DNA of 64,000 bases from a virus (taxonomy: Duplodnaviria > Caudoviricetes), in the IMG/VR virus record IMGVR_UViG_3300045391_005020. One strand, given 5' to 3'. The notes beneath the pieces are model-generated. The model was given only the letters and a program-made list of their open reading frames with translations. It did not search any database and was not told the DNA's origin. Of this stretch, positions 1,592 through 60,779 are shown in pieces. The translations under genes were made by a program, and so were the position numbers. Numbering within the stretch: position 1 is the stretch's first letter; the number at the start of each line of letters is the position of its first letter.

Positions 1592-2326
1592 ATGGCGGAG
1601 CAGCCCGACAGAATACAGGTAACCGCGGAAGAGCTGCGTGATGAGATGATCACGATCATGGCCGACCTGGTCATGGAGCGAGATGCCCTCAAGTTCGGCA
1701 AGTTCCTGCTGCGAGCCAATAAGTCGAGTCCGTACCAGATCGACGTCGGGGCCATGTGCCGCGGTCGCGATACCTTCACGATCGGCCGCGCCTACGCGCT
1801 TGCCATCAACCACAACTTCGGTCCAGATCTGAAGACTCTGGTCGGGGTTCCGGGCCGCGGAATCGCGATGGCGACTGTAGCCTCGTTCTACTACGCCCAC
1901 ATGTATAACTACGACTGCGCGTGGTCGTTTCCGAACCTCGCCGCGGCCAAACCGGACGAGCCGATCCCGTTCTGCGGCGCCCCGCTCGACGAAGAGTCGG
2001 CCGTGGTGATCGTCGATGACATCCTGTCCGACGGTACGGCGATCCGGGACACTATCGAGATGGTGAAGAAAACCGGCGCCAAGATTATGGGGGTCTGCTG
2101 CCTCATCGATCGCCGCGATCGCACAAAATCGAACCGGTTGGCTTCGACCGATATCGAACGCGAGACCGGCGTGCCGGTGGTCAGCTGCTGCACAGTCGCG
2201 GACCTCGTCCGTAAAATGCCTAGTTCGTACCTATCTGATGAAAAGCGCGAGCTGGTAATCAAGCACGTGACGGTGGAAACTGGTCCGCCCTTGCTACCGC
2301 CGTTCAATAAGCTGACGAACCTTTAG
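1592..2326 (+). CDS. pyrE: Orotate phosphoribosyltransferase-like type I PRTase (divergent)
   Basis: ALKFGKFLL...SPY N-terminal motif, PRPP-binding VVIVDDILSDGTAI, C-terminal GVCCLIDR; flexible catalytic loop not canonical. Confidence 0.7.
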   Translation: MAEQPDRIQVTAEELRDEMITIMADLVMERDALKFGKFLLRANKSSPYQIDVGAMCRGRDTFTIGRAYALAINHNFGPDLKTLVGVPGRGIAMATVASFYYAHMYNYDCAWSFPNLAAAKPDEPIPFCGAPLDEESAVVIVDDILSDGTAIRDTIEMVKKTGAKIMGVCCLIDRRDRTKSNRLASTDIERETGVPVVSCCTVADLVRKMPSSYLSDEKRELVIKHVTVETGPPLLPPFNKLTNL

Positions 2327-4755
2327 GCCTGACTGCGGGACCAGGCTCCGACCAGGTCCCACATGTTCTGGCTCACGATCCAGTGACCTACGTCGGATCC
2401 GACTAGCATTCCTGCCTGAGCTAGCTGCTTGGTCAGGCGCCCAATGTCCGCCGGCGCCAATACCGGGCTCGCAAATGCGGCCCTGACGTCAGCGTGTTCG
2501 ATCCTGATTCCGTCTTGGGTCTGCCGGATCGGCAAGATGTTCTCGTCGGCGAGTCTGCGGAGTAACCCGAGCGTCTTGGTTCCGATCGTGTGCTCAGACA
2601 GGATCCAGTTTGAATCCAATTGGGCAGCGCAGCTGAGCAGCAGGTGCTGTGGCCGGCTGAGGCTGACCACTGGTCCGACGATTTCGGCGATGCTGGTGAA
2701 GAAGCAGTCTGGTTTTATCAGGTCAGCGGTCGCGATCAGGATCGGGAGCGCCCGAAATACCCACCGGAGTGCCTGGAAGTCGCAGACGGATTCGACCGGG
2801 AGCCTGAGCCACTCGGGGTTCACCGCCAAGAGCTCGAACGAGCGCCGATCCAGCGACAGCATGACGTGCTTCGGCCCCGGATGGCGCATCAGTTCGACCA
2901 ACTTCTCATCCGACCATCGGCCCATAACCGGGAGGGGCCACATGGCTTCATTTTGGACGCGCTCGACCGAGGGATCGACTGAGGCCGACATCGCGAAGGC
3001 TTCGGCGGTGCGTTCCACCACGTGATTTGCCGACTGGACCGCGATGCAGAACGGTTGCTGGCCCGCATGGGTCCTGACCAGGTTGCCCAGCAGGGCCAAA
3101 ACCATCATGCAGAACCCTGGATCCAGGAATGCTTCCCACTCGGCGGGACTCAGGTTCTCCGGGTATGGGATATCGGGGCCTGCGACGCGCGACACCGCGT
3201 GCGAGACCGAATCCGAGTCGACCATGAAGCGCTGGAACCGCAGCACATCGCCTTCCCATCCGAACGGATGATCTGACGAGTAGGTCTTGATCGAGTCCTT
3301 GGAGAATTCGCGCCCGATATCGAGCAACCGAGCTCCCCACTTGGGTCCGTACCGGAACCACCCACCGTGCCTGGTGAGCAATTGCTCGAGCCACTTCACC
3401 GTTGCGGCTCCGCGGATCTTGGCTTTGTCTTCTTGGAACGGCACGACCTTGTCGTCGAACGACACGATGCCGCGCATGATCGAGTGACCCGACTTGGTGT
3501 CGTTGTGAATCTCGTCGATCCGGATCACCGCGTTGCTGACCAGCTTGCCATCCTGGGTCCAGCCGGATTTCGACTCGTCGATGCGGTCGCCATCAAATTC
3601 GATCGAGCGGCTGGTTGACGAATTACCGAAGTAGCGCGTCAGTTCGGCCGCGTCCTGGCCGGTGAAATGCGATTTGACCTGATTCTGCTCGGTGACGGTC
3701 AGACTCAGGTCTGCCGCACGTCGCGAACCTTCGGCGCCAGCACGTAGCAGGTAGGTTCCGATCGCCTGATAGGCCGGAACCGCAAGATTGGTCAGATGCC
3801 GGATCAGCGATTTCGACGTGTCCTTCTCGCGGTAGTCGGTCAGGAGCGAAAACTTCAAATCCCACTCCTGCACGGTGTGGGCGCCGTCATACCGGAGCGC
3901 CCGTTTGAGCCAGTGATGGATCGGCTGGTTATTCGATGATACCGGCAGGAACATAACGCGCTGATTCGCCAGCTGGTGTATCGGCTCTTCGTGACCAACC
4001 GGGATCGCGAACACCGTCATGCTGTTCTGATTGTCGACTGTTTGACGAACCATGAACCGCAAGGCGACTCGCGGGTCGTTGACCATCACGACTTGATCCT
4101 GCCCGATCCGGAGTGCATGTCCGTACGCGAGCGCCGCAGTGTAGCGCTGCAGTTTCACGAACATGTACCCCTGCGGGATCTTCTTGGGGTTCACCAGGTA
4201 GAGACCGACCAGACGGGACTGCTCCCAGACCGGTATCGCGAACGCGTGGTAGTTGCCCAGATCGGCCCGGAGCCGTTTCCGCTCCTCCTTGTCGAGGAAC
4301 AACTCCTCCAGGTCTGCCGCACCAAGGATCGAGTGGTTCCGTGCCAGGAGGTTTCCGTGGATCGCAAGGCTCATGCACCGAAGTTCGGTCAGGATCGCCT
4401 TCGCGGGCAGCGACATCCCTCCCTCAAGGCGCTTCTGGCCTTCCCGCCAGACCTTCAGGCAACGCTGGTTATAGTCCCGCTCCATCTGGTACGTGGACTG
4501 GCCAGCCTGGGTCATCTCAAGCCGCGCATCGATCTGGAGTTCGGCGACCGCCGCCGGCAGCTCCTGGCCGGATTTGCGCGCGTACAGCTCAACCACGTCC
4601 CCGATGAACCCGCACTGCTGGCAAATCAGGGTATCGGATCCCCGAACTTCTAACGCATCAACGGTTTGACACAAAGGGCATTGACACGAGAATGGTAGTA
4701 CATTCCGGTCACGGATTCCGCATTTTGCCAGAGCAAGGCTGAGGTCAATCTTCAT
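2323..4755 (-). CDS. Primase-like protein with N-terminal Zn finger, apparently degenerate TOPRIM and long C-terminal region
   Basis: CPLC...CQQCGFIGDVVELYA...AVAEL resembles the DnaG Zn-binding domain; FAIPVW...LVGL and YG...VVMV resemble the primase core; ATG 4755 (TTG 4767 alternative). Confidence 0.55.
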   Translation of the reverse strand: MKIDLSLALAKCGIRDRNVLPFSCQCPLCQTVDALEVRGSDTLICQQCGFIGDVVELYARKSGQELPAAVAELQIDARLEMTQAGQSTYQMERDYNQRCLKVWREGQKRLEGGMSLPAKAILTELRCMSLAIHGNLLARNHSILGAADLEELFLDKEERKRLRADLGNYHAFAIPVWEQSRLVGLYLVNPKKIPQGYMFVKLQRYTAALAYGHALRIGQDQVVMVNDPRVALRFMVRQTVDNQNSMTVFAIPVGHEEPIHQLANQRVMFLPVSSNNQPIHHWLKRALRYDGAHTVQEWDLKFSLLTDYREKDTSKSLIRHLTNLAVPAYQAIGTYLLRAGAEGSRRAADLSLTVTEQNQVKSHFTGQDAAELTRYFGNSSTSRSIEFDGDRIDESKSGWTQDGKLVSNAVIRIDEIHNDTKSGHSIMRGIVSFDDKVVPFQEDKAKIRGAATVKWLEQLLTRHGGWFRYGPKWGARLLDIGREFSKDSIKTYSSDHPFGWEGDVLRFQRFMVDSDSVSHAVSRVAGPDIPYPENLSPAEWEAFLDPGFCMMVLALLGNLVRTHAGQQPFCIAVQSANHVVERTAEAFAMSASVDPSVERVQNEAMWPLPVMGRWSDEKLVELMRHPGPKHVMLSLDRRSFELLAVNPEWLRLPVESVCDFQALRWVFRALPILIATADLIKPDCFFTSIAEIVGPVVSLSRPQHLLLSCAAQLDSNWILSEHTIGTKTLGLLRRLADENILPIRQTQDGIRIEHADVRAAFASPVLAPADIGRLTKQLAQAGMLVGSDVGHWIVSQNMWDLVGAWSRSQA

Positions 4756-6283
4756 GAACGCGATCAATTATCACAAGATGAGTCGCCTGCTGGCTGTAAC
4801 TGGCCGTCCTGCATATGTTAAGGTGGCCGGCGAGCAAGTCGACCCCGCAACTCCGGTGTATGCCGATCCCATCAAGAAGTTGTATCCCGTCCAGACCAAA
4901 GAAGCTACGTTCCTATCGTTTGTCAACGCTATTGATCAGAATGCTGACTCCCAGCAAATTCAGGAGATCCGCAAGTACGCGGCCTTCTGGAAAATCGAGG
5001 CTGACCTGGACGCCGCTGAGCAGGCCCTGATCGCCGACCGGACCGAGATGAGCCTGTCCGAGCTCCCCGACAGCGACTTTGCCCTGTGTCAGAAGCACGG
5101 CTCCGAAACGATCCGTAAATACGCCGCCGTCGACCCGACCACGACCGTCGAAGCCGCAATTGCGTTCTACGAGAACCGCACCCGCTACCCGCTCGAGTGG
5201 CGCAAGCAGGCCGCCGTGAACCTGCTGGCCCGCGCTGACCAGTTCGCGACACCGCTGCCGGCCTACGTCTCAGAATACCTCCACAAGGCCGCCGGCTACG
5301 CTGTCGCGACCACTGAAGCGATAGACCAGGCCCTCGGGGCCCGGATCGACCTGACGCCGGCGCGCGACCACGAGGCCCTCAACAAGATCGCGGTCGTCCT
5401 GAATAAGATCGCCGAGTCCGAAGAGCTCCGGTACAACACCGAGCTGGTCGCGGAAGTCCTGGGCGCGATGGATGAATACGATCGCGACATCAAACTCGCC
5501 CAGCATTACGAATCCGGCCGCCTTCCGCTCCCGGAAGAGATGCTGGCCATGACCGAAACCAGTCTCCAGAAGTACGCTGGTTGCCAGAACCGCATCGTGC
5601 GCCTCGTGAACGGCCATGAAGTCGACGTCGCCGATTTGTCGGTCGACGCGCTCGACGCGGTCGACGAGAAGCTCGCGGGCATGAGCCTGTCGAAGCTCGC
5701 CGAGGTTCTCCCGACTCTGCCAAAACCGGAAGCCGATCTCCTGATCGAGCTCCTCCCGGCTGCGCAGCACTGGAAGACGGCTGGCGACGAGACCAAGGCG
5801 GTCACTCCGGCCCCGACGCCGAATCCTGCTCCCGCTCCGGCCCCGACGCCGAATCCTGCTCCCGCGCCTGTGAATCCCAGCTTCGGTACTCCGGCCGCCG
5901 CGACCCCGGCACCGGTCACTCCGGCGCCAACCTCGGCCCCGGCGGTTCAGCCCGCCGCCCAGCCCGCGGCGACCCCGGTCGGCAACAATGCCTCGCCGGA
6001 TGAGTCGATCGATGACTACATCAACCGCATCAGCGCCCCCAAGACGGCGCCGGCGCCGACGATGAACAACACGCTCGACAACAGCACCGATATGGACGCC
6101 GACGCCGCGGCATTCGCTGCGAGTCCGGTGAAGAACTTCCAACCGGTCAAGCAGGTGGTCCCCGGCGCAACGCTTCCCAACGGCAACATCAAGGTTCCGC
6201 CCGGCAAGCTGTGGGTCGACACCCCAGAAGGCCGGCGCGCGACCGCTCGCGATCCGAACTTCCATCGCGGTTCGAACAAATAA
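4754..6283 (+). CDS. Hypothetical phage protein, helical K-x-A-rich body with Pro/Ala-rich tail; predicted internal head protein
   Basis: 509-aa ORF with phage-typical codon usage; 14 of 26 Lys in K-x-A context; start may be ATG 4778. Confidence 0.7.
   Translation: MNAINYHKMSRLLAVTGRPAYVKVAGEQVDPATPVYADPIKKLYPVQTKEATFLSFVNAIDQNADSQQIQEIRKYAAFWKIEADLDAAEQALIADRTEMSLSELPDSDFALCQKHGSETIRKYAAVDPTTTVEAAIAFYENRTRYPLEWRKQAAVNLLARADQFATPLPAYVSEYLHKAAGYAVATTEAIDQALGARIDLTPARDHEALNKIAVVLNKIAESEELRYNTELVAEVLGAMDEYDRDIKLAQHYESGRLPLPEEMLAMTETSLQKYAGCQNRIVRLVNGHEVDVADLSVDALDAVDEKLAGMSLSKLAEVLPTLPKPEADLLIELLPAAQHWKTAGDETKAVTPAPTPNPAPAPAPTPNPAPAPVNPSFGTPAAATPAPVTPAPTSAPAVQPAAQPAATPVGNNASPDESIDDYINRISAPKTAPAPTMNNTLDNSTDMDADAAAFAASPVKNFQPVKQVVPGATLPNGNIKVPPGKLWVDTPEGRRATARDPNFHRGSNK
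5805..5865 (+). repeat. 30-bp perfect tandem repeat x2 encoding PAPTPNPAPA
   Basis: ctccggccccgacgccgaatcctgctcccg occurs twice head-to-tail. Confidence 0.9.
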
Positions 6284-6286
6284 TCC

Positions 6287-6997
6287 GTGCAACACGCCAG
6301 CGACCAGCTTCGGCGCGTCGCTGGACAGTTCCTGTCCGGCGAGCGTGAAACCTACGCCACCGTCCTGTTGGGCATCCTGTTCCAGGTCTACGGCGCGGAG
6401 TGTTTGAACTGGGATCCGCTCACTCTCCAGGCGCAGATCACCGAGGATTTCGGGGTCCACATGCCTGATGTGGTGAATGATCAGCTGATGGCGATGGTGG
6501 CTGCTATGACCAGCGACACAGTATACACATCGGTCCACGCATTCGACCAAACCGTGAACGCGTTCTGCCGCGTCGGCGTCGATCACGATCAGGATATGCC
6601 GGCCCCGGAAGAAGTCGCTTGGACCGTGTTCGAACTGACTATGAACGATCCGGATCCGTACGGTCAGACCTCAGAGTGGCCGTTCAGCCCGGATATAGCG
6701 CGCTACGTTGGCGTGGTGCTGGCGGACGCTGGCCTGAAGCGCGCCCCCGAGACCCTAGAGTTTGCGATCATGCCCGAGTGGGTTCCGAAGAATCTCGGGG
6801 ATCACCCGCAAGAATTCGCCGAGGCCTATCATTCGGCTGAAGAACAGTCCGCCCAGATCGACCAGTTCGTCCAGAAGCACTTCCAGGTGCTCGTCAGCCA
6901 CCTGCACGAGATCGGGGTCGAACCGGCTCCGCCAGCCCTGGCACAAGCAGAGGATCTGCCTGAAGAAAGCCCGCTAGATCGGCTGCTTCCTGGCTGA
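6287..6997 (+). CDS. Hypothetical acidic phage protein
   Basis: 236-aa ORF starting 3 nt after the upstream stop, globular composition. Confidence 0.75.
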   Translation: MQHASDQLRRVAGQFLSGERETYATVLLGILFQVYGAECLNWDPLTLQAQITEDFGVHMPDVVNDQLMAMVAAMTSDTVYTSVHAFDQTVNAFCRVGVDHDQDMPAPEEVAWTVFELTMNDPDPYGQTSEWPFSPDIARYVGVVLADAGLKRAPETLEFAIMPEWVPKNLGDHPQEFAEAYHSAEEQSAQIDQFVQKHFQVLVSHLHEIGVEPAPPALAQAEDLPEESPLDRLLPG

Positions 6998-19044: not shown

Positions 19045-19448
19045 TGGACGCTTCCGATCTTGTCGGTGCCGACGATCTGCTGTTTGAACAGACCGTCGTA
19101 TTTGTCCTCTTGTTCGAGGGTATATCGGAGGTGTACCAGCATTTCACGGCGGCCTTGCTTGCGCGCCAGGTTCGAACGTCGGAATGCCTCAAGAGCATCG
19201 ATCTGAAGCAGCAGCCCGATCTGGTCGTCGCTCGAGTACTCACCTGTCTGGCTGGTATGAGCAGCCAGCAAGGTTTTCTCGAGTTCCTCCGTGACCGGCA
19301 TCCCGTATTTTCCAGGGTCCAAATCAAACGGTTGTGGCTCGACTTCAGCAAAATCGGCCGACTCCAAAGCATTACTCAGTTGGACGCGCGACTGTTTGCG
19401 AGCCTTGATAAATTCCTTGGTCTCATCGTAGATCTGACGCTTACTCAT
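19041..19448 (-). CDS. Hypothetical protein
   Basis: ATG 19448 overlaps the sigma stop; helical, charged. Confidence 0.65.
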   Translation of the reverse strand: MSKRQIYDETKEFIKARKQSRVQLSNALESADFAEVEPQPFDLDPGKYGMPVTEELEKTLLAAHTSQTGEYSSDDQIGLLLQIDALEAFRRSNLARKQGRREMLVHLRYTLEQEDKYDGLFKQQIVGTDKIGSVQ

Positions 19449-20307
19449 AGAACTGGTCCAATCTCGCCTGGATCCTGGCAGCACGTTGGCTCACGGCCGA
19501 CGGCGACAGCTTGAGGCGTTTGGCAATCTCTTGGTTCGACAGCTCGGGTGCGTTTCGGTAGCCGGTACGGTACTGCAGGATCAGACGATCGATGTCGCCG
19601 AGATCGTGGTAGACCGCGTCGAGCCAATCCTGCTCGGGTGTGCTGGCGTTCTGGACGTGGTCGTAAGAGGAATCGTCCTCGTCGTTCTCGTCTTGGTTCT
19701 CGATTACGCTGAGCGGAACGCCCTGACGCATCTTTGCCCGTACTTTGACGACACGCTTGACGGGAAGGCCAGTCGAGTCGGCGATCTCTTCGTCTGAGGC
19801 TTCGCGACCCAGGTTGTTCTGGATGTCGTCGATGGCGCGCAGAACAGCGCCGCGGTCCTGCCGCAGCTGTCTCGGCAGCGCGAGCGGCTCCTGAATCTGC
19901 GAGGTCGTGTGGCGAAGTTCCTGGAGGTGTTGGGAGACGTGCGTCTTGAGGTTCGCCCCGAGAGTCGGGTCGAACGACTTCACGGCCTTGACTGCGAGCA
20001 GCTTGGCGCGCTGACGGATGATCGGGTTGTCGGTACCAGCGTAGTGTTTGACGGCCGCGTCGATCGAGGGCTGCAGCTCTTTGATGACAGCCTGCATGGT
20101 GTCGCGGCCCGGCTTTGTCCGGTACGCGTCAATCGGCTTGATTTCGGACTTCGCCTCTGGTCCAGTCTCGCCCAACAGATCGAACGCGTGCCCCAGTGCC
20201 GGCTTAGGCGGGCGGCTGGGTGAGGGAAGCGCCCCGGTATTGCTCGGTCCAAATGGGGTGAGTGTAGGACTCGAACTCGAGGTTTTGTTGTGCGGTCGAT
20301 CGAACAT
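19441..20307 (-). CDS. Phage-encoded RNA polymerase sigma-70-family factor (FliA/SigF-like architecture)
   Basis: Region 2 AVKSFDPTLGANLKTHV, region 3 LGREASDEEIADSTGLP, region 4 HTH LSNQEIAKRLKLSPSAVSQ; true start may lie downstream of 20307 because of a 100-nt overlap. Confidence 0.85.
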   Translation of the reverse strand: MFDRPHNKTSSSSPTLTPFGPSNTGALPSPSRPPKPALGHAFDLLGETGPEAKSEIKPIDAYRTKPGRDTMQAVIKELQPSIDAAVKHYAGTDNPIIRQRAKLLAVKAVKSFDPTLGANLKTHVSQHLQELRHTTSQIQEPLALPRQLRQDRGAVLRAIDDIQNNLGREASDEEIADSTGLPVKRVVKVRAKMRQGVPLSVIENQDENDEDDSSYDHVQNASTPEQDWLDAVYHDLGDIDRLILQYRTGYRNAPELSNQEIAKRLKLSPSAVSQRAARIQARLDQFYE

Positions 20308-53473: not shown

Positions 53474-54409
53474 TCAGCTCGTTGCGATGCGGACGCGGGC
53501 GACAGCGGCAGGGTTGCCGATCGTGGCGCCGCGCTCACAGTACGCGTAGAACTCCAGGTTGAACGCCTTCTTGTCGACGTACATCGTGGTGTCTTCGAGC
53601 ACGTAGCTCTTGCCGAGGAACTCGGGGCTGGCGAACAACCAGAACTCCGACTCACCGACCAGCTCGTGCTTGTTGGTGATGACCCAGTTGACGCCCAGCA
53701 GTTTCTTCTGCTGGAAGCCGTCGACGAACATCGACTCGCTGAGGTCGCCGCCGGCCGTGTCGCGGCCGAACTTGGCAACATCTTCGATCGTGATGTTGTT
53801 GCAGAGGATCGTGACCGCTTCGAGGTGCGCGAAGGTCCGCTTCAGGATCTTCTTCATCTCGAAGAGCGAGGAACGGGTGATGCCGTTCGCGTCGACGATC
53901 TTCTTGTTCTGGATGATGCCCGTCTCAGGGACGGTCGAGCCTTCGGAGCCGACGATGCTCTGGCACGCGGCCAGCATCTTGCGGTCGAACTCGAAATCCA
54001 TGTCGAGGATCGCGTTGTCCGAGATCACCTGGCGGATGTCCATTCCGTACGTGCGGAGTTCGGACATGTCCTTGGTGAATTTCGGGGTGACGATGCGATC
54101 GAAGTACACCGGGTAGCGGTCGCCGCGGAAGTAGTACTGGATCGGCTGCTGGCCGAGCGGGATCGTGATGGCGGCCGGCGAATTCGGTTCGCGTTCGACC
54201 AGCTTCACGTTCTTGTCGGTGTTGAGCTGCGGGGTGAGTTCGTCATCACCGATCTTCACCGCGGGCATGATCTTCTCGAAGAAGCTGCTTTCGCGGATGC
54301 GGATGCGGGTGAAATCCGTCACCATATCGGCGGCTTCTTTGATCTGCCCGGCTTCGAGCATACCATAAAAAGCGCGGTTTGACTGTTGTGCGCTGACTTT
54401 AGTGGTCAT
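53474..54409 (-). CDS. Major capsid protein (HK97 fold)
   Basis: 311 aa after protease-scaffold-decoration genes, followed by a strong terminator; RESSF..KI.P N-arm, E-loop-like EREP, C-terminal G.TIGN..AV. Confidence 0.82.
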   Translation of the reverse strand: MTTKVSAQQSNRAFYGMLEAGQIKEAADMVTDFTRIRIRESSFFEKIMPAVKIGDDELTPQLNTDKNVKLVEREPNSPAAITIPLGQQPIQYYFRGDRYPVYFDRIVTPKFTKDMSELRTYGMDIRQVISDNAILDMDFEFDRKMLAACQSIVGSEGSTVPETGIIQNKKIVDANGITRSSLFEMKKILKRTFAHLEAVTILCNNITIEDVAKFGRDTAGGDLSESMFVDGFQQKKLLGVNWVITNKHELVGESEFWLFASPEFLGKSYVLEDTTMYVDKKAFNLEFYAYCERGATIGNPAAVARVRIATS

Positions 54410-55022: not shown

Positions 55023-55466
55023 TTACCGGGCGCCAGGCAGACGATTCAGGGCGGAAACCGTGTGGCGATCCCACACGTCGTCTGCCGTCTCTGGTTTGGT
55101 CTCGTTGATCACAACGGTGCCGACCTTGGGGGCCGAATCGATGTAATCCGCGACTTTGGTGAGCGCGTCGAGAGCCTTCTCATGGCTCAGGACATTGGCC
55201 GCGAACTGGTCGCGACGCTCAGGGGAGGAGAGCAGGCCGCGATCGAACAGCTTGTCCGCGGCCGTCTTGGCCAGCGGGGCGATCTTGGCTGCCGCTTCTT
55301 GGGCTGCCTGATCGCGCTTCGAGCCGGCGTCTTTCGACGAGCTCAGCTCAGCTGCGAGCTTGGTGTTCTCTTCCGTTTTGGTTGTGAGGGCTGACTCGAG
55401 CTCGGCGATTTTGGTCGCCTGGGCTTCGATGGTGTCAGCAGCCTGCTTGATCAGTTTGGCGCTCAT
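55023..55466 (-). CDS. Small coiled-coil scaffold-like protein
   Basis: 147 aa helical; 7 of 14 Lys in K-x-A context. Confidence 0.65.
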   Translation of the reverse strand: MSAKLIKQAADTIEAQATKIAELESALTTKTEENTKLAAELSSSKDAGSKRDQAAQEAAAKIAPLAKTAADKLFDRGLLSSPERRDQFAANVLSHEKALDALTKVADYIDSAPKVGTVVINETKPETADDVWDRHTVSALNRLPGAR

Positions 55467-55474
55467 GGGGTCCC

Positions 55475-56986
55475 TTATTTCGCAGCCGCGGTTTCGAGTT
55501 CGGCGACCTTGCTCAGGATCTGCCGGCGGACTTCGATCCGCGCAGCCGCCATCTTGGCAGCGGCGGGGTCACTGTGGTGATGAGCCTTCTGGGCCATGAG
55601 GGCCTTGAGGTCATCCATGGTCAGGCCCATCTCGTGCAGGACTTGCTCGAGGGCCTGTTGCTCTTCCGGGCTCTTGGGGGCGAGAACCGACGAGTCGTTC
55701 GTCATGGCGTCAGCCGGGTGAGCGGCAGGGGCGTCATGCTTCGGAGCATCGTGCGCGGGAGCATCATGAGGGGGCAACGCTTCGGCTTTCTTCTCGCCCT
55801 TGTCGGCCGGAAGATCCTTCTTGGCGTTGTTGTCGACTTCAGCTTTGGTACCGACCGCTTCGCCTTCGGCAGGCTTCAGCTCGGCCTTCTGGACCTTCGG
55901 GGCTTCGATGCCGCCTTCAGCGTCTTTGGTACCGTCTTCGACGTTGTCGCCGATCATGCCTTCCGCGATCTTGACCGCGTAGGCGTAACCAGCATCGACC
56001 GCCTCCTTGTGGAGGGTGGCGATCTTTTGGAGATAGAGGGGATGCTCGGGGCCGATGTTGGCCGCGGCCATCTTGGCTTCGAGGCCTGGATCTTCGACCA
56101 TCTCGCCGCCGGCAGCAGCCGGATCAGCGGCAGGAGCCGGAGCGCCCATCGGGGCCGGGGCACCCATCGGAGCAGGAGCCGCGCCGCCAGCTGCAGCGGC
56201 CGGATCGCCGGCAGGAGCAGCAGCGCCGCCCGCGCCGTGCAGTTCCTGCATGGCCTGGGTCAGCTCTTGTTCGCTGATCGCGCCGCTCTGGACGGCTTCG
56301 AGCAGAATCTTTTCAGCATCTTCCTCGGAGAGAGCGCCGGATTGAATGGCCTGCATGAGGCCATCGGCCGACTGGTCGGCAACAGCGGGATCGGCCATTC
56401 CGGCCGCAACCTTGTTGGTCGCGCGGGCCTGCTTGACCAGGAATTTCTCCAGGCCGCTCAGCTCGCGGGTCTCTTCGGAAGCTTTCTTATTGAGGATCGC
56501 AGCCAGCTTGGCTTCCGCTTTCGCGGTGTCGGGCTTCGCCGGCTCTTCAGCTTTTTTTGCGGAGGCTTCCATTTCGGAAGCGACCTTGCGCAGTTCTTCG
56601 ACCAGGGCCGACGCGGTCTTCTTGTCGTCGCCCTTGATCCCGCCTTCGGGGCCGTTGGCGGCTTCGTGTTTCACTTCGAGCTCAGCGCCCTCGGTGCCCT
56701 TCTGGCCGTCAGTCGAAACCGCGGTCGCGCCGTCGGTCGACATTTCGAGCGAAGCGCCGGACGGGTTGGTCTTGGCGCCGCCGTCGACCATCGCCTTGGT
56801 GCCCTTCGCCGCTTCAGACTTGTTCGACGCCATCTGGGCGCCGGTCTCGACCGCTTTGGTACCATCTTCGGCGCCGTCGCCGGGAGAGGCGGTTTTGACC
56901 GCAGCTTCAGCGGTCTTCTTGTGATCATCGCCAACCTTGTTGATCAACGTGTTCAGGCGCTCGAGGATTTGCTTGCGGTGCGACAT
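55475..56986 (-). CDS. Low-complexity scaffold/internal core protein
   Basis: Ala/Glu/Lys/Pro-rich, between protease and MCP; ATG 56986 has an AGGA SD; many K-x-A motifs. Confidence 0.7.
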   Translation of the reverse strand: MSHRKQILERLNTLINKVGDDHKKTAEAAVKTASPGDGAEDGTKAVETGAQMASNKSEAAKGTKAMVDGGAKTNPSGASLEMSTDGATAVSTDGQKGTEGAELEVKHEAANGPEGGIKGDDKKTASALVEELRKVASEMEASAKKAEEPAKPDTAKAEAKLAAILNKKASEETRELSGLEKFLVKQARATNKVAAGMADPAVADQSADGLMQAIQSGALSEEDAEKILLEAVQSGAISEQELTQAMQELHGAGGAAAPAGDPAAAAGGAAPAPMGAPAPMGAPAPAADPAAAGGEMVEDPGLEAKMAAANIGPEHPLYLQKIATLHKEAVDAGYAYAVKIAEGMIGDNVEDGTKDAEGGIEAPKVQKAELKPAEGEAVGTKAEVDNNAKKDLPADKGEKKAEALPPHDAPAHDAPKHDAPAAHPADAMTNDSSVLAPKSPEEQQALEQVLHEMGLTMDDLKALMAQKAHHHSDPAAAKMAAARIEVRRQILSKVAELETAAAK

Positions 56987-57015
56987 TGGGGTGGGTTCCT
57001 GATGATCTGGTGTAA

Positions 57016-57044
57016 AAATTACAGGGGTCAGTTTAGACACGCAA
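57016..57044 (-). promoter_or_regulatory. Putative promoter TTGCGT-N17-TAATTT for the scaffold-capsid operon
   Basis: Spacer GTC-N6-GACCC shared with 61836-61864. Confidence 0.55.
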
Positions 57045-58373
57045 GTCGTTACTTGCGGCAACAGCGGTTAGGACGGCTTCGTCCGCTCGGTTGCTTGGAT
57101 ATGCAGCGAAAGCCAGCTTGTAATGCAGATACAATCGCGAGAGCCCGAGATGCTCGGCGCGATCGATTGCGATCCCGGCCGACTTGACTGAATCGGCTGG
57201 TTTCATGATCGTGATGCGAACAATTCGAGCCCCGACCGGTTGCGCCTTCATCGACGCCTTCTCGTTCAGCTCGGACGCAGTATCTTCACCGAAGTCCAGA
57301 TTTGACACGTCGTTGTGTCCATCCAGTGAGGACATCTCGGGATCCTGTTCTTCCAGGAGTCCACTGAAGCCGCCCTGCACATCGGGTTCGCCGCACATGC
57401 AGGCCAACTTGGATTGGCCGACGATGATCTCGGTGAAATCCTGGAACGACAGCATGTGACCAGCGCGGTGAAGGGTGGTCAGCACCGCTTCAACTCCGTG
57501 CAAATCTGCTGCCTGCTTGATCTGTTTGACCGCGCGATCCGAAAGCTTCATCGGACCCGCGCCCGACACGGCCTTGCCGTGACCCGCGACGCGCTTCTCA
57601 ATTTCAGCCAACCGGACGAGGGTCGCCTTCTTGACCTGATCGTCGTCGAGCCCGTACGCCTCTGCCAATTCGTGGCCGCCAATCACGCCATTTTGTGACG
57701 CGACCTTGGCCAGCGCGTACCCGATCCTGTCGGCCGGCTTGTAGACCGTGCTGATGTCGAAGTACTTCGGGTTCGGATTCTGCATGTAGATCTGGCGACC
57801 GTCCGCCAGCACTTCACCCAGCTTGGTCTTGATGTGATCGCAGTGGTGGCGCGCGGTCGGGGCCTTATGGCCGCAATAGCTGCAAACGTCGTAGTCCTGC
57901 TTGGAACCCATCGAAACCGGAATGTCTTCACCCCGCGCGAACGCGTCGAGTTCTTCTGCGTACTTCGTGTTGTCGAGTGCGATCAGAAGTTCGATGCGGC
58001 GCATGTCCGGATTGTGGGCAGTCGCCAGCACTTCGCCGGTTTTCAGGATCGGCGAGTGGTTCTTGTGGTTCTTGAAAACGTGACCGTTTTCTTTGAATCC
58101 AGTATGGGCCGTGACATTGTCTTTTTCGCTGAAGCCGTCGCAGTTGCGGTTCGGGCCGTACGCTTCTTCGTCGCCGACCGCGAGCACGTGCAGAACCGAG
58201 TGGCCCTTCACGCCGCCTTCGTCGGCGATCTTCTGCAGAGTCTTGCTGAATAGTCCATCGGCCGCTCGCTTCTCGAGCCAGCCCGCGTCGACGCCGCGGC
58301 GATGCAGCGGAACCAACGCGACGTTAAGATCGTTGAAGTCGTACGAGTCGGTGAGGATCAGTTTGCGAATCAT
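57033..58373 (-). CDS. Putative prohead (capsid maturation) protease
   Basis: N.N.D.F, VF.NH.N (His), VSMG (Ser), CSYCG...C.H Zn site, FDIS.V..PAD; upstream of scaffold and MCP. Confidence 0.72.
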   Translation of the reverse strand: MIRKLILTDSYDFNDLNVALVPLHRRGVDAGWLEKRAADGLFSKTLQKIADEGGVKGHSVLHVLAVGDEEAYGPNRNCDGFSEKDNVTAHTGFKENGHVFKNHKNHSPILKTGEVLATAHNPDMRRIELLIALDNTKYAEELDAFARGEDIPVSMGSKQDYDVCSYCGHKAPTARHHCDHIKTKLGEVLADGRQIYMQNPNPKYFDISTVYKPADRIGYALAKVASQNGVIGGHELAEAYGLDDDQVKKATLVRLAEIEKRVAGHGKAVSGAGPMKLSDRAVKQIKQAADLHGVEAVLTTLHRAGHMLSFQDFTEIIVGQSKLACMCGEPDVQGGFSGLLEEQDPEMSSLDGHNDVSNLDFGEDTASELNEKASMKAQPVGARIVRITIMKPADSVKSAGIAIDRAEHLGLSRLYLHYKLAFAAYPSNRADEAVLTAVAASNDLRV

Positions 58374-59320
58374 GGGCGAGCGAGCTGTTCGGGCGGGAAG
58401 AATTTGTTGGCGGTGTACCCGAGCGCCGACCCGAGACCGAGCGATAGTCCCACACGGCCCTTGCTGGCAATCGGGTCGCGTGCAGCGCGAATGTCCGAGA
58501 AGCCCTTCTGGAGACGCGGGAGGGTTACATCAGAGCCGGTGCGCTTCTGCAGTTCTGCCTGAACTGCCGGGACGGTGTAGTCCCAGCCGCCGATGCGCTG
58601 CTTCGCGCCTGGGTTCTTGTTCGCCCAATCCAATGCCTTCAGCATCTGGTTGGTGTTCGGATTCTTGTAAGCCAGGTTCTTGGCCTGCGTGTACATCCGA
58701 TAGATAGCAGTCAGCGGGTCGAGACGCGCATTGCCGGTCATCGGATTTTCAGGCGTGCTGCCTGGCGCGTTGAGGTGATCCATGATCAACCTGCTGAGAT
58801 TCTCTTTACCACCGAGCGCGGTGTTGAGCTGACGGGCTGGCGCGACTGCAGGCGATTCGCCCGACGCCGGCGCGGTTGCGGTTGCGGCCTGCAGGGCGAC
58901 ATCATTCATGCCCTGCATGTTTCCGGTCATCTTCCGTGCCGAGTCGAAGAAATTCCGGACTAGCGGAAGTTTTGAAAGAAACGGAGCTGCGGTACCGGCG
59001 GAGAATCCGCCGAGACCAGCGAGATTTACCGGGCCATTTCTGGCCGCTTCGAGATTCGCTTCAGGAGTGCCCGGGGCCGGAGGCGGAGTAGTCTTGGGCA
59101 CGATGCCGGTAGCTTCCATCGCGGGACGCCAGTGCTTCCATCCGTAGTATCCGGCTGCACCAACGCCGCCCAGAATCCCGAGGGCCGCGAGCCACTTCTT
59201 CCAGTGCTCCTTCTTGGCCTGTTGGACTTCGGGATCGTTGTCGTTGTCGGTCGATTCGACGTCTTCGTCGAACATATCCGGCTGGATCACGTCTTCAGCG
59301 GCGAGCTTCTCGAAGGTCAC
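58370..59320 (-). CDS. Hypothetical protein with Gly-rich hydrophobic segments
   Basis: Acidic N-terminus, WLAALGILGGVGAAGYYGW and GLSLGLGSALGY segments. Confidence 0.65.
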   Translation of the reverse strand: MTFEKLAAEDVIQPDMFDEDVESTDNDNDPEVQQAKKEHWKKWLAALGILGGVGAAGYYGWKHWRPAMEATGIVPKTTPPPAPGTPEANLEAARNGPVNLAGLGGFSAGTAAPFLSKLPLVRNFFDSARKMTGNMQGMNDVALQAATATAPASGESPAVAPARQLNTALGGKENLSRLIMDHLNAPGSTPENPMTGNARLDPLTAIYRMYTQAKNLAYKNPNTNQMLKALDWANKNPGAKQRIGGWDYTVPAVQAELQKRTGSDVTLPRLQKGFSDIRAARDPIASKGRVGLSLGLGSALGYTANKFFPPEQLARP

Positions 59321-59321
59321 G

Positions 59322-60779
59322 TTAGACGTCTTTCTTGCCGCGGGCGCGAGCCAGCGTGTCGAACGGGAGTGAACCTTCGGAGGCGAGCGACTGACGCATC
59401 AGGCTCGACAGCTCAGCGGTGCTGAGATTCGGGTTCACGCCTTTGACCTTGTTGTATGCGCTGACGACATCCTGGATCGGATGTTCACGGATGTACGGGT
59501 CGGCTAGCAGTTCCTCGATATTGCCGCGCGAGTCGGCGTTCGAGATCTGCTGACGAATGCTAACCGGCAGCGCGGTTTCCTCGGTGAGGGGTTCCGGTTT
59601 ATCCTTGCTCGGATCAGCGACCGAACCGGCGGCGCCGCCGTACAGATCGATCTGATCGTTCGGATCCATGCCGGCGCCAGTCATTTTGTCCGGCAGGTTC
59701 GCGATATCGCCCGACAGAGCCTTGACGCCTTCCGCGGCGCTGCCCAACCCGAGACCGATCGTGACGGCAGTCTTGAGATATTCGTCGGCGTTTTCGAGAC
59801 CGGCGCGCAGCAGGTCGCGCGCAGCCAGCTTCTCGCCCGCGATCAGGTACGCGGCTTCAACGCTGTGCATCGCGTCGACTAGTGACTGTTCGCGCGGCGA
59901 CACATCATTGAGGCCGGCGAGCTTCTCGCCCGAGGCGCGCTTGTGGCCCAGACGATCGAGGCTGCCCGCTTCGAACAGCATCGCGATCGTTTCGTCGCTG
60001 ACGCCCGAGAGGATCGCGAGCTTTTCGATCCGATCGAAACGCGGGGAGTCGGTGCGGCGGAATTCATCCGCGAGCTTGAAGAGGCCGTCGAGTGCAATGT
60101 CGTAGGCCTTGGTGTAGGCCAGCGACGCTTCGTCGGCCGCGTGCTTGATCGCGGTGAGCTGATGAAACGGATTGCCGGTCGTGCGGCCTTCGCCCGAAAT
60201 GTCGACTTTGACTTGGTGATGATCGCCCACCGTGACCGCAACCTTGGTGGTCTTGTGGGTCAGCGGATCCGGTCCGCCGAGCGCGTTCTGGAATGCGGCG
60301 GCGTGGTCTTCCTTGTTGCCGGCCAGGTACGAACCCTTGTCGTGATTGGATTCCAGAGCGGCCTTACGACGACGCTTCAGCTTCGGAGCGTTGGTGACCG
60401 GCATGTCGAGCGCGGCAGCCAGCTTGGGCTCCATCGCGTCGGTCTTCTCGTTCTTCTCGGCGTCCTTCTCGTCCTTCTTGGCCGCGGCGTCTGAGGCCGG
60501 GTCGGCGTCGTAGAGGCGCTGGTTCACCACTTCGGCGTTGGTGATCGGGAAGGCTTTGTCCTTCTCGTTGGCGTCCGAGTTGGCCAGCACCGAGAGGGTC
60601 TTGGAGTTGTTGATCGCGTGGCTGACCCGGAGGACTTCGTTCGAGGTCAGTTCGCCGTCGCGGGCGACTTTCAGGAGGGCGGCGTTGGGGTCGATCCCGA
60701 TATTCATCAGACCGATCGCCTGCTCGGCGCACTTGATCAGGTGCTGGTGCCGATCATCGGACATCAATTGGAGTGACAT
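59322..60779 (-). CDS. Hypothetical head-module protein, K-x-A rich
   Basis: 485 aa helical; about 12 K-x-A motifs. Confidence 0.7.
   Translation of the reverse strand: MSLQLMSDDRHQHLIKCAEQAIGLMNIGIDPNAALLKVARDGELTSNEVLRVSHAINNSKTLSVLANSDANEKDKAFPITNAEVVNQRLYDADPASDAAAKKDEKDAEKNEKTDAMEPKLAAALDMPVTNAPKLKRRRKAALESNHDKGSYLAGNKEDHAAAFQNALGGPDPLTHKTTKVAVTVGDHHQVKVDISGEGRTTGNPFHQLTAIKHAADEASLAYTKAYDIALDGLFKLADEFRRTDSPRFDRIEKLAILSGVSDETIAMLFEAGSLDRLGHKRASGEKLAGLNDVSPREQSLVDAMHSVEAAYLIAGEKLAARDLLRAGLENADEYLKTAVTIGLGLGSAAEGVKALSGDIANLPDKMTGAGMDPNDQIDLYGGAAGSVADPSKDKPEPLTEETALPVSIRQQISNADSRGNIEELLADPYIREHPIQDVVSAYNKVKGVNPNLSTAELSSLMRQSLASEGSLPFDTLARARGKKDV

Follow-up and report, generated by a model that had tools for sequence, protein, structure and literature searches.

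Head maturation by a protease is well known and, as a class of mechanism, not new; few large phages (T4, phiKZ and SPN3US) have had their cleavage motifs mapped. The assemblins of herpesviruses cut Ala-Ser bonds, T4 gp21 cuts after Glu (I/L-x-E), and the genes for the T4 core proteins lie in the head cluster. T4 gp21 degrades the core proteins gp22, gp67 and gp68 (PMC9958956), and SPN3US gp245 cuts after A-X-E, repeatedly so in long propeptides (PMC10052503). Here we describe a 64,000-nucleotide stretch of tailed-phage DNA (Caudoviricetes; IMG/VR record IMGVR_UViG_3300045391_005020), hereafter the window, in which a plus-strand gene (4754..6283) encodes a 509-amino-acid (aa) protein with more than half of its lysines in the motif K-x-A. 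Sequence patterns and analogy with known systems indicate that K-x-A is very probably the recognition sequence of a prohead protease with the herpesvirus/T4 fold. The 509-aa protein is likely to be a substrate of this protease inside the prohead, and we lean toward regarding it as a prohead-core protein that would be digested throughout rather than trimmed.

Fourteen of the 26 lysines in the 509-aa protein occur as K-x-A (KVA23, KEA49, KYA74/122/273, KQA151, KAA178, KIA211/218, KLA247/306/314 and KTA341/430), compared with 4.1-4.3 expected from an alanine content of 16.5%. A recount reproduced exactly the number and motif list given in the original prediction, which had been made from the DNA letters alone, and the excess is significant both by a binomial test (p=7.9e-6) and by shuffling, as none of 200,000 shuffles gave 14 (p≤5e-6). 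Within the protein, K-x-A ranks first among 1,600 residue-pair/gap combinations (~0.013 after correction), and this gene has the lowest K-x-A p value in the window, as expected if it carries the signature most strongly. The only other enriched window genes are four members of the head cluster (55023-55466, 55475-57061, 57033-58373 and 59322-60779); beyond this K-x-A-rich set the window is at background, with 57 of 640 lysines in the motif versus 62 expected. The 509-aa gene and the genes for capsid and protease are on opposite strands, ~47-51 kb apart, matching the distance of about 50 kb proposed earlier. What had not been recognized is that the signal resides in the body of the protein and not in its tail: 13 of the 19 lysines in residues 1-343 are K-x-A, versus one of seven in the tail, which is the chance level. 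The 4754-6283 reading frame is favoured by its codon GC3 (G+C at third positions) of 0.79 over a reverse-strand open reading frame (ORF) at 5270-6586, which we set aside as a shadow frame. No match to the 509-aa protein was found in Pfam or PHROGs, nor by tblastn of its body or of a distant homologue against cultured phages, and a promoter scan returned a single sigma70-like site (4666-4693), which is the chance level (0.6 expected).

The gene had been termed an orphan, a description that does not hold, as a profile search (E≤1e-3, 50%-identity representatives) recovered 1,717 relatives of its product. It is a single-copy core gene of Arash-like phages, occurring once in each of 17/17 near-complete related genomes and present in 31/32 overall, with the genomes for this count picked by their protease and not by the 509-aa gene. 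Conservation of the motif, a check that the original prediction had proposed, is extensive: across 160 homologue bodies 1,945 of 3,606 lysines (54%) are K-x-A versus 460 expected, a 4.2-fold excess, and 159 of the 160 are individually enriched (p<0.01), counts in which each homologue is taken as independent, however closely related. The same enrichment was found in 30/30 further homologues retrieved via the protease. The signal is specific, with Arg-x-Ala depleted (0.63x) and other offsets at ≤1.5x. At the level of single positions, close and distant homologues retain K23 in 94% and 84% of cases and K178 in 97% and 64%, respectively, and a K-x-A occurs within ±2 residues of K273 in 95% and 86%; the K218, K247 and K306 sites are local, not family-wide. 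The pieces between body sites measure 7-48 aa, the longest being 48 aa versus ~83 for random placement (p=0.012), and even spacing is significant at p<0.05 in 86/123 homologues. Conservation of this kind indicates that K-x-A is under selection in the 509-aa family.

A candidate for the enzyme that would read this motif is encoded in the head cluster. The putative prohead protease (57033..58373, minus strand) matches PHROG 18299 (head maturation protease; E 3.9e-10), and its homologues include the annotated prohead proteases of Rhodococcus phage E3 and Gordonia phage Stormageddon as well as phage G gp19 and Bxz1 gp95. Structural comparison of the protease model with VIA gave Z 10.2 to the varicella-zoster virus protease (root-mean-square deviation, rmsd, 2.9; 114 residues aligned) and Z 10.1 to T4 gp21 (rmsd 3.0; 135 aligned), with unrelated entries at ≤6.7; Foldseek matches were found only at E>0.05. 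His103 and Ser154 are invariant in 56 protease sequences, the catalytic assignment being made by motif and not by superposition. A K-x-A stands on both sides of the catalytic domain, just before it in 100/101 homologues and just after it in 79/101, and the downstream site is also present in Arash gp222, D69, phage G gp19 and Bxz1 gp95. The major capsid protein (53474-54409), a homologue of Arash gp226, carries the one conserved K-x-A of its family at K24-E-A26 (54332..54340, minus strand): the motif occurs near residue 24 in 56/59 capsid proteins, and at other positions it falls to approximately half of chance. The capsid proteins of the window and six relatives had no Pfam match at E≤0.1, including to PF07068, the best capsid match in the mReC lineage described below. 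Between the protease and capsid genes lie two K-x-A-rich genes (55023..57061, minus strand; 55023-55466 and 55475-57061, with 7/14 and 18/49 lysines), putatively scaffold-like by position, and a further K-x-A-rich gene of the cluster is located at 59322..60779 (minus strand; 13/35 lysines). At least one enriched gene was found in 79/80 related head clusters. As read from these sequences, K-x-A marks the borders of the protease domain, scaffold-position genes and one capsid site, and not tail or replication genes. Since protease borders, the capsid N-terminus, scaffold-position proteins and a disordered linker are the places where T4 gp21 and SPN3US gp245 cut, K-x-A would be a maturation site. 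That a gene unlinked to the head operon also passes upholds the proposal that it could serve as an independent test of the motif, with the proviso that the test is indirect and cleavage inferred.

The motif may extend past the clade of phages that encode an RNA polymerase (RNAP), because it is also enriched in phage G and Bxz1: gp19 of phage G has 8/32 lysines in K-x-A (p=0.002) and Bxz1 gp95 has 19/71 (p=4e-4). In phage G, which infects Bacillus, the enriched head-region proteins are gp7, gp19 and gp21, and Bxz1 gp95 is a protease-scaffold fusion. No published cleavage motif was found for the assemblin-like proteases of the phage G/Bxz1 type, a multi-omics preprint on phage G gives none, and our search of the open-access literature found neither a description of K-x-A as a maturation motif nor a function for the 509-aa family. 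K-x-A also occurs within the first 25 residues of the products of locus L034 (11811-12440), window gene 58370-59320 and further genes between portal and RNAP in the 148.6-kb virus contig (G000) of which the window is part and which ends at the window start; a matching protein is recorded on a 214.9-kb contig. In some of these products the early K-x-A is followed by Pro/Ala-rich disordered stretches resembling the design of the 509-aa junction, and they are candidates for internal proteins with short propeptides.

The body of the 509-aa protein (aa 1-343; 4754..5782, plus strand) is conserved, mostly helical and multi-domain, with its 13 K-x-A sites spaced ~25-33 aa apart. An AlphaFold2 model built from 21 sequences (mean predicted local confidence, pLDDT, 83.5; predicted template-modelling score, pTM, 0.54) is confident but loosely jointed, with dips at residues 21-30, 91-100, 271-280 and from 341 onward. 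The most conserved site, K23-V-A25 (4820..4828, plus strand), closes a short N-terminal leader ahead of a low-confidence loop. It is followed by two units in tandem, putatively DUF6582-like (aa 31-96 and 99-183; 4844..5302, plus strand), which align with each other in hhalign (89%, E 2e-6). PF20223 (DUF6582) matches 16/123 homologues, with a best E of 4.7e-8; the 509-aa protein itself has no PF20223 match, falling below the Pfam gathering cut-off, and homologue P0099 scores 27.0 against a cut-off of 27.3. The fold of the N-terminal units compares with an Atlas model of DUF6582 at TM 0.54 by target over 106 residues. A helical bundle spans residues ~184-276 and is succeeded by a small C-terminal domain closed by a conserved LPTLP segment, with K273-Y-A275 (5570..5578, plus strand) positioned in a low-confidence linker (pLDDT 53) ahead of this domain. 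The body also contains invariants outside the motif, namely R150, E261 and the LPTLP segment. Foldseek against the PDB, VIA-align and a PDB sequence search with the body returned matches only at the level of generic helical bundles (best Z 5.9), and a BFVD search returned two uncharacterised viral proteins and nothing else.

At the boundary between the helical body and the Pro/Ala tail, as originally proposed, lies K341-T-A343 (5774..5782, plus strand), exactly where model confidence collapses (pLDDT 41 at 341-345) and the tail begins. A junction K-x-A is present in 47/52 tailed homologues (20-aa window), versus 12.7% of windows deeper in the tails; the junction sequence is otherwise unconserved, four of the five exceptions have K-x-G or K-x-S, and the residue after the junction alanine is A, G or S in 37/47. 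The tail itself (aa 344-509; 5783..6280, plus strand) is lineage-specific and of low complexity, with 64 of 166 residues P or A, a single K-x-A (K430) and a perfect 30-nt tandem duplication in its coding region (5805-5865), and it aligns with that of the closest relative only. Extension past the body is ≤10 residues in 73/156 homologues and >40 in 52/156, and past the junction 35 of 272 tail lysines are K-x-A, the chance level. In homologue P0141 (574 aa) the C-terminal extension holds a DUF5661 domain behind the junction K-x-A. The motif N-(T/S)-L-T-D-D-N-F recurs in the otherwise unrelated Pro/Ala tails of P0006, P0007, P0009, P0027, P0031, P0033 and P0034; these belong to the closest clade, and the motif is degenerate near aa 437-450 of the 509-aa protein and not found elsewhere in the genome.

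Two orthologues come from cultured phages, Salmonella phage Arash gp242 (GenBank OQ632216, 174466-175335; GenBank numbering) and Vibrio phage D69 gene 0296. The Arash protein was missed by a 21-sequence profile and recovered with a 160-sequence profile, matching at E 1.5e-11 in a search of 63 proteins and at E 4.9e-7 plus 0.004 in the whole genome, over two segments (profile positions 45-150 and 178-347); phages G and Bxz1 had no match to the family in the profile search. Both orthologues share with the 509-aa protein a high K-x-A content (8/22 and 10/20 lysines, respectively), with several positions matching. Unlike it, they lack the Pro/Ala tail (289 and 283 aa), and their genes are found on the structural-gene strand, after tail genes. 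Immediately downstream of the 509-aa gene, at a distance of 3 nt, is a K-x-A-poor gene for a 236-aa protein (6287..6997, plus strand), a conserved neighbour that is near the gene in most loci and is the orthologue of Arash gp243 (GenBank numbering; profile E 6.7e-10); this neighbour also comes after the orthologues in Arash and D69. GenBank gp240 of Arash (OQ632216.1 171656-172540) looks like a shadow-frame call.

The published numbering of Arash proteins runs one above GenBank in the gp242 region, such that the orthologue is Gp243 and the paper's Gp242 (21 peptides) is a different protein (PMC10585845). LC-MS (mass spectrometry coupled to liquid chromatography) of Arash virions lists this Gp243 as a 'structural protein' (unique peptides, 12; spectra, 359); for the orthologue of the downstream neighbour it gives 3 peptides (PMC10585845 Table 2). 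We regard the data as weak evidence of location because 116 of 252 proteins appear in the table, metabolic enzymes and scaffold-position proteins among them, and because the coverage is implausible, being 100% from 2 peptides for some large proteins (PMC10585845). The text of that paper gives no function, motif or processing for the orthologue, and 'protease' and 'cleav' are absent from it. With the motif conserved and the orthologue detected in virion LC-MS, the pairing of a protein missing from virions with motifs missing from homologues, named at the outset as evidence to the contrary, is not what was found.

Enrichment in 159/160 bodies, the junction site in 47/52 tailed homologues and the Arash virion data together favour the part of the original prediction that cast the protein as a head-associated protease substrate. 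The part that did not fare well is its main story, in which the tail is removed and the protein retained or ejected: 73/156 homologues, together with Arash gp242 and D69 0296, are tailless, and the body sites are evenly spaced. Digestion of a core protein is favoured because of this even spacing, the optional nature of the tail and the avoidance of K-x-A by the capsid protein. The preferred context appears to be hydrophobic-x-K-x-A-small. A cut after the alanine is the more probable, since small substitutions are tolerated there and the next residue is small, as in herpesvirus assemblins; a cut after the lysine, in which the hydrophobic residue at -2 would be P3, is less probable, and trypsin is unable to reveal a cut directly after Lys. 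The folded 509-aa protein would act while the head is being assembled, perhaps close to the portal in view of the linkage to the terminase gene described below, after which the protease would open it at the linker sites K23, K273 and K341. Cutting at the remaining sites would then yield peptides of ≤48 aa, as T4 gp21 does to gp22, gp67 and gp68, and removal of the Pro/Ala tail would be one of those cuts, restricted to lineages that acquired a tail.

Several observations weigh against digestion throughout. For every member of the family, cleavage at K-x-A is inferred from sequence. AlphaFold2 places nine of the 13 body sites in helices and a tenth in a strand, and with 10/13 in predicted secondary structure the protein would have to unfold before cutting. 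Taken by itself, the spacing in Arash gp242 does not reach significance (p=0.17), and even spacing could come partly from helix lengths, the homologues not being independent. In the window and its relatives the gene is never inside the head cluster, and searches of PHROG, Pfam and the PDB turned up no connection to T4 core proteins by sequence or fold. The Arash orthologue is readily detected in virions with a reported coverage of 100% (PMC10585845), as would be expected of a retained protein.

The main rival is trimming, with the protein then retained or ejected. Here only the exposed linker sites would be cut (after K23-x-A25, K341-x-A343 and perhaps K273-x-A275), an outcome we consider rather unlikely, and the folded body or its domains would remain in the head, internal or destined for ejection, for instance beside packaged RNAP, which we likewise rate as doubtful. 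The best-conserved or position-tracked sites do occur in low-confidence linkers, and the body has its non-motif invariants (R150, E261 and LPTLP). Both the Arash orthologue and the RNAP subunits were detected in virions (PMC10585845), and most SPN3US substrates lose propeptides only (PMC10052503). Trimming leaves unexplained, however, why 54% of body lysines are K-x-A and evenly spread while a retained capsid protein avoids the motif, and half of the family has no tail to lose.

The contrast between body and tail also accommodates a scheme in which the conserved body is a self-destructing carrier, shredded at K-x-A in the prohead core, and the variable, motif-poor C-terminal extension is a released cargo. 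We hold this to be improbable, and equally so the corresponding identity of the cargo as the Pro/Ala polypeptide here and the DUF5661 domain in one homologue. Tails at chance level past the junction are predicted by such a carrier, and equally by a neutral, dispensable tail. If true, RNAP-packaging phages would have a general way of loading their capsids, run by a Lys-P3/Ala-P1 protease.

Alternatively, K-x-A could be a docking or packaging signal, a helical surface motif that binds core proteins, the capsid protein or the portal, in keeping with the helical location of most body sites, the hydrophobic residue at -2 and the presence of the motif in many head proteins. This is quite improbable: the motif borders the protease domain exactly, stands once at the N-terminus of the capsid protein and occurs in a disordered linker of unconserved sequence, all of them positions at which maturation proteases cut. 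The residue that follows the Ala of K-x-A is small, as it is at herpes-type sites, which also argues against docking. A composition artefact, whereby the periodicity of Ala-rich helices (Ala 16.5%, some of it structural in the DUF6582-like fold) generates K-x-A and the gene is a replication accessory beside the adjacent primase-like gene, is largely refuted and very improbable indeed, given that the signal is specific to Lys and +2, absent from other genes and present in an unstructured junction, and that the Arash and D69 genes follow tail genes on the structural strand, with the orthologue found in virion preparations.

The wider genome places the window among Arash-like phages. Salmonella phage Arash, a myovirus of 181 kb, has matches to the portal gene, both RNAP subunits and the protease, capsid, sigma-like and baseplate genes, and among cultured phages the capsid protein matches only Arash and the Vibrio phages D69, D148 and D181. 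This tailed phage encodes beta and beta' RNAP subunits with an NADFDG motif, and the C-terminal beta' subunit is present in 16/17 near-complete relatives. An RNAP with NADFDG characterizes the multisubunit-RNAP-encoding Caudovirales (mReC; PMC7481178), and the RNAP appears to resemble that lineage by its subunits and motif. The RNAP, encoded just past the window end, is unusual in the way it is split: beta is fused to N-terminal beta', including NADFDGD, in a 1,468-aa product (L034:7362-11768), and the remainder of beta' has its own 655-aa gene (L034:12596-14563), with similar lengths in Arash. A sigma-factor-like gene (window 19441-20307) sits inside the tail/baseplate module, and its homologue, Arash gp10, was detected in virion preparations (PMC10585845).

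Replication-type neighbours had also been noted, and a primase-like gene indeed adjoins; in relatives, the gene is usually <10 kb from the large terminase gene (20/23 loci, many of them near-duplicates), which makes its setting as much a late/packaging one as a replication one. The primase-like gene is divergent (2323..4767, minus strand), its 5' end abutting or overlapping the 509-aa gene, and the two are back-to-back in many relatives. It is a look-alike of Zn-ribbon/TOPRIM/DUF927 proteins (feature search 0.96, a lead) and has no Pfam match. Its reverse-strand ATG (4755-4753) shares the CATG at 4753-4756 with the 509-aa start codon, an arrangement also seen at the gene start in L003, L004 and L030; if translation truly begins at this ATG, no space is left between the genes and the promoters would lie inside the neighbouring gene. 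Beside the primase-like gene, in the window and in close relatives, is a phosphoribosyltransferase (1592-2326; PF00156), which we take to resemble orotate phosphoribosyltransferase. Two tandem, related Cys-rich ORFs (69-749 and 751-1494) look by eye like HNH homing endonucleases, have no significant Pfam match and are absent at this location in the close relative L030. DNA nearly identical to window 4700-6400 occurs in soil and groundwater metagenomes, with no RNA dataset among the listed sequencing runs matching this segment, and the name of the contig of the closest relative, L030, suggests a 0.1-micron groundwater fraction.

Should K-x-A prove to be the motif, core proteins would be identifiable from sequence alone, even where their genes are far from the head operon, in a widespread clade of RNAP-packaging phages (160-230 kb, most of them uncultured) for which the 509-aa family is a candidate essential assembly protein. 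The same specificity would be predicted for the protease family, including phage G gp19 and Bxz1 gp95 from a mycobacteriophage.

Comparison with described systems places the locus between several of them. SPN3US and phiKZ (proteases gp245 and gp175) resemble it in being large myoviruses with a packaged RNAP and a three-residue motif in many head proteins, and their protease self-cleaves next to its domain (PMC10052503), as K-x-A flanks the domain of the window protease. Their ejection proteins, however, have sites (A-X-E) in N-terminal propeptides and keep the mature part, a pattern that the 509-aa protein fails, with 13/14 K-x-A in the conserved body. The herpesvirus assemblins (clan SH) have a fold in common with the window protease and prefer a hydrophobic P3, where the window protease would have Lys. 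DUF6582 (PF20223; ~83 positions) may distantly resemble the N-terminal units by profile and predicted fold, the C-terminal half of the 509-aa protein being unrelated, and as a lead it occurs in 11% of the members of one HK97-type (S78) prohead-protease cluster. From the T4 core proteins the 509-aa protein differs in having no detectable sequence or fold homology to them and in the position of its gene outside the portal-protease-scaffold-capsid cluster, ~50 kb away here and near terminase or tail genes in relatives. By sequence, it belongs to the uncharacterised Arash gp242 family. The protein would by analogy work like the T4 core substrates gp22, gp67 and gp68: a protease of the same fold would digest core proteins to small peptides and, if K-x-A is the motif, the sites extend over the whole chain, 13 in number, with the longest piece 48 aa, as in a degraded core of the T4 type.

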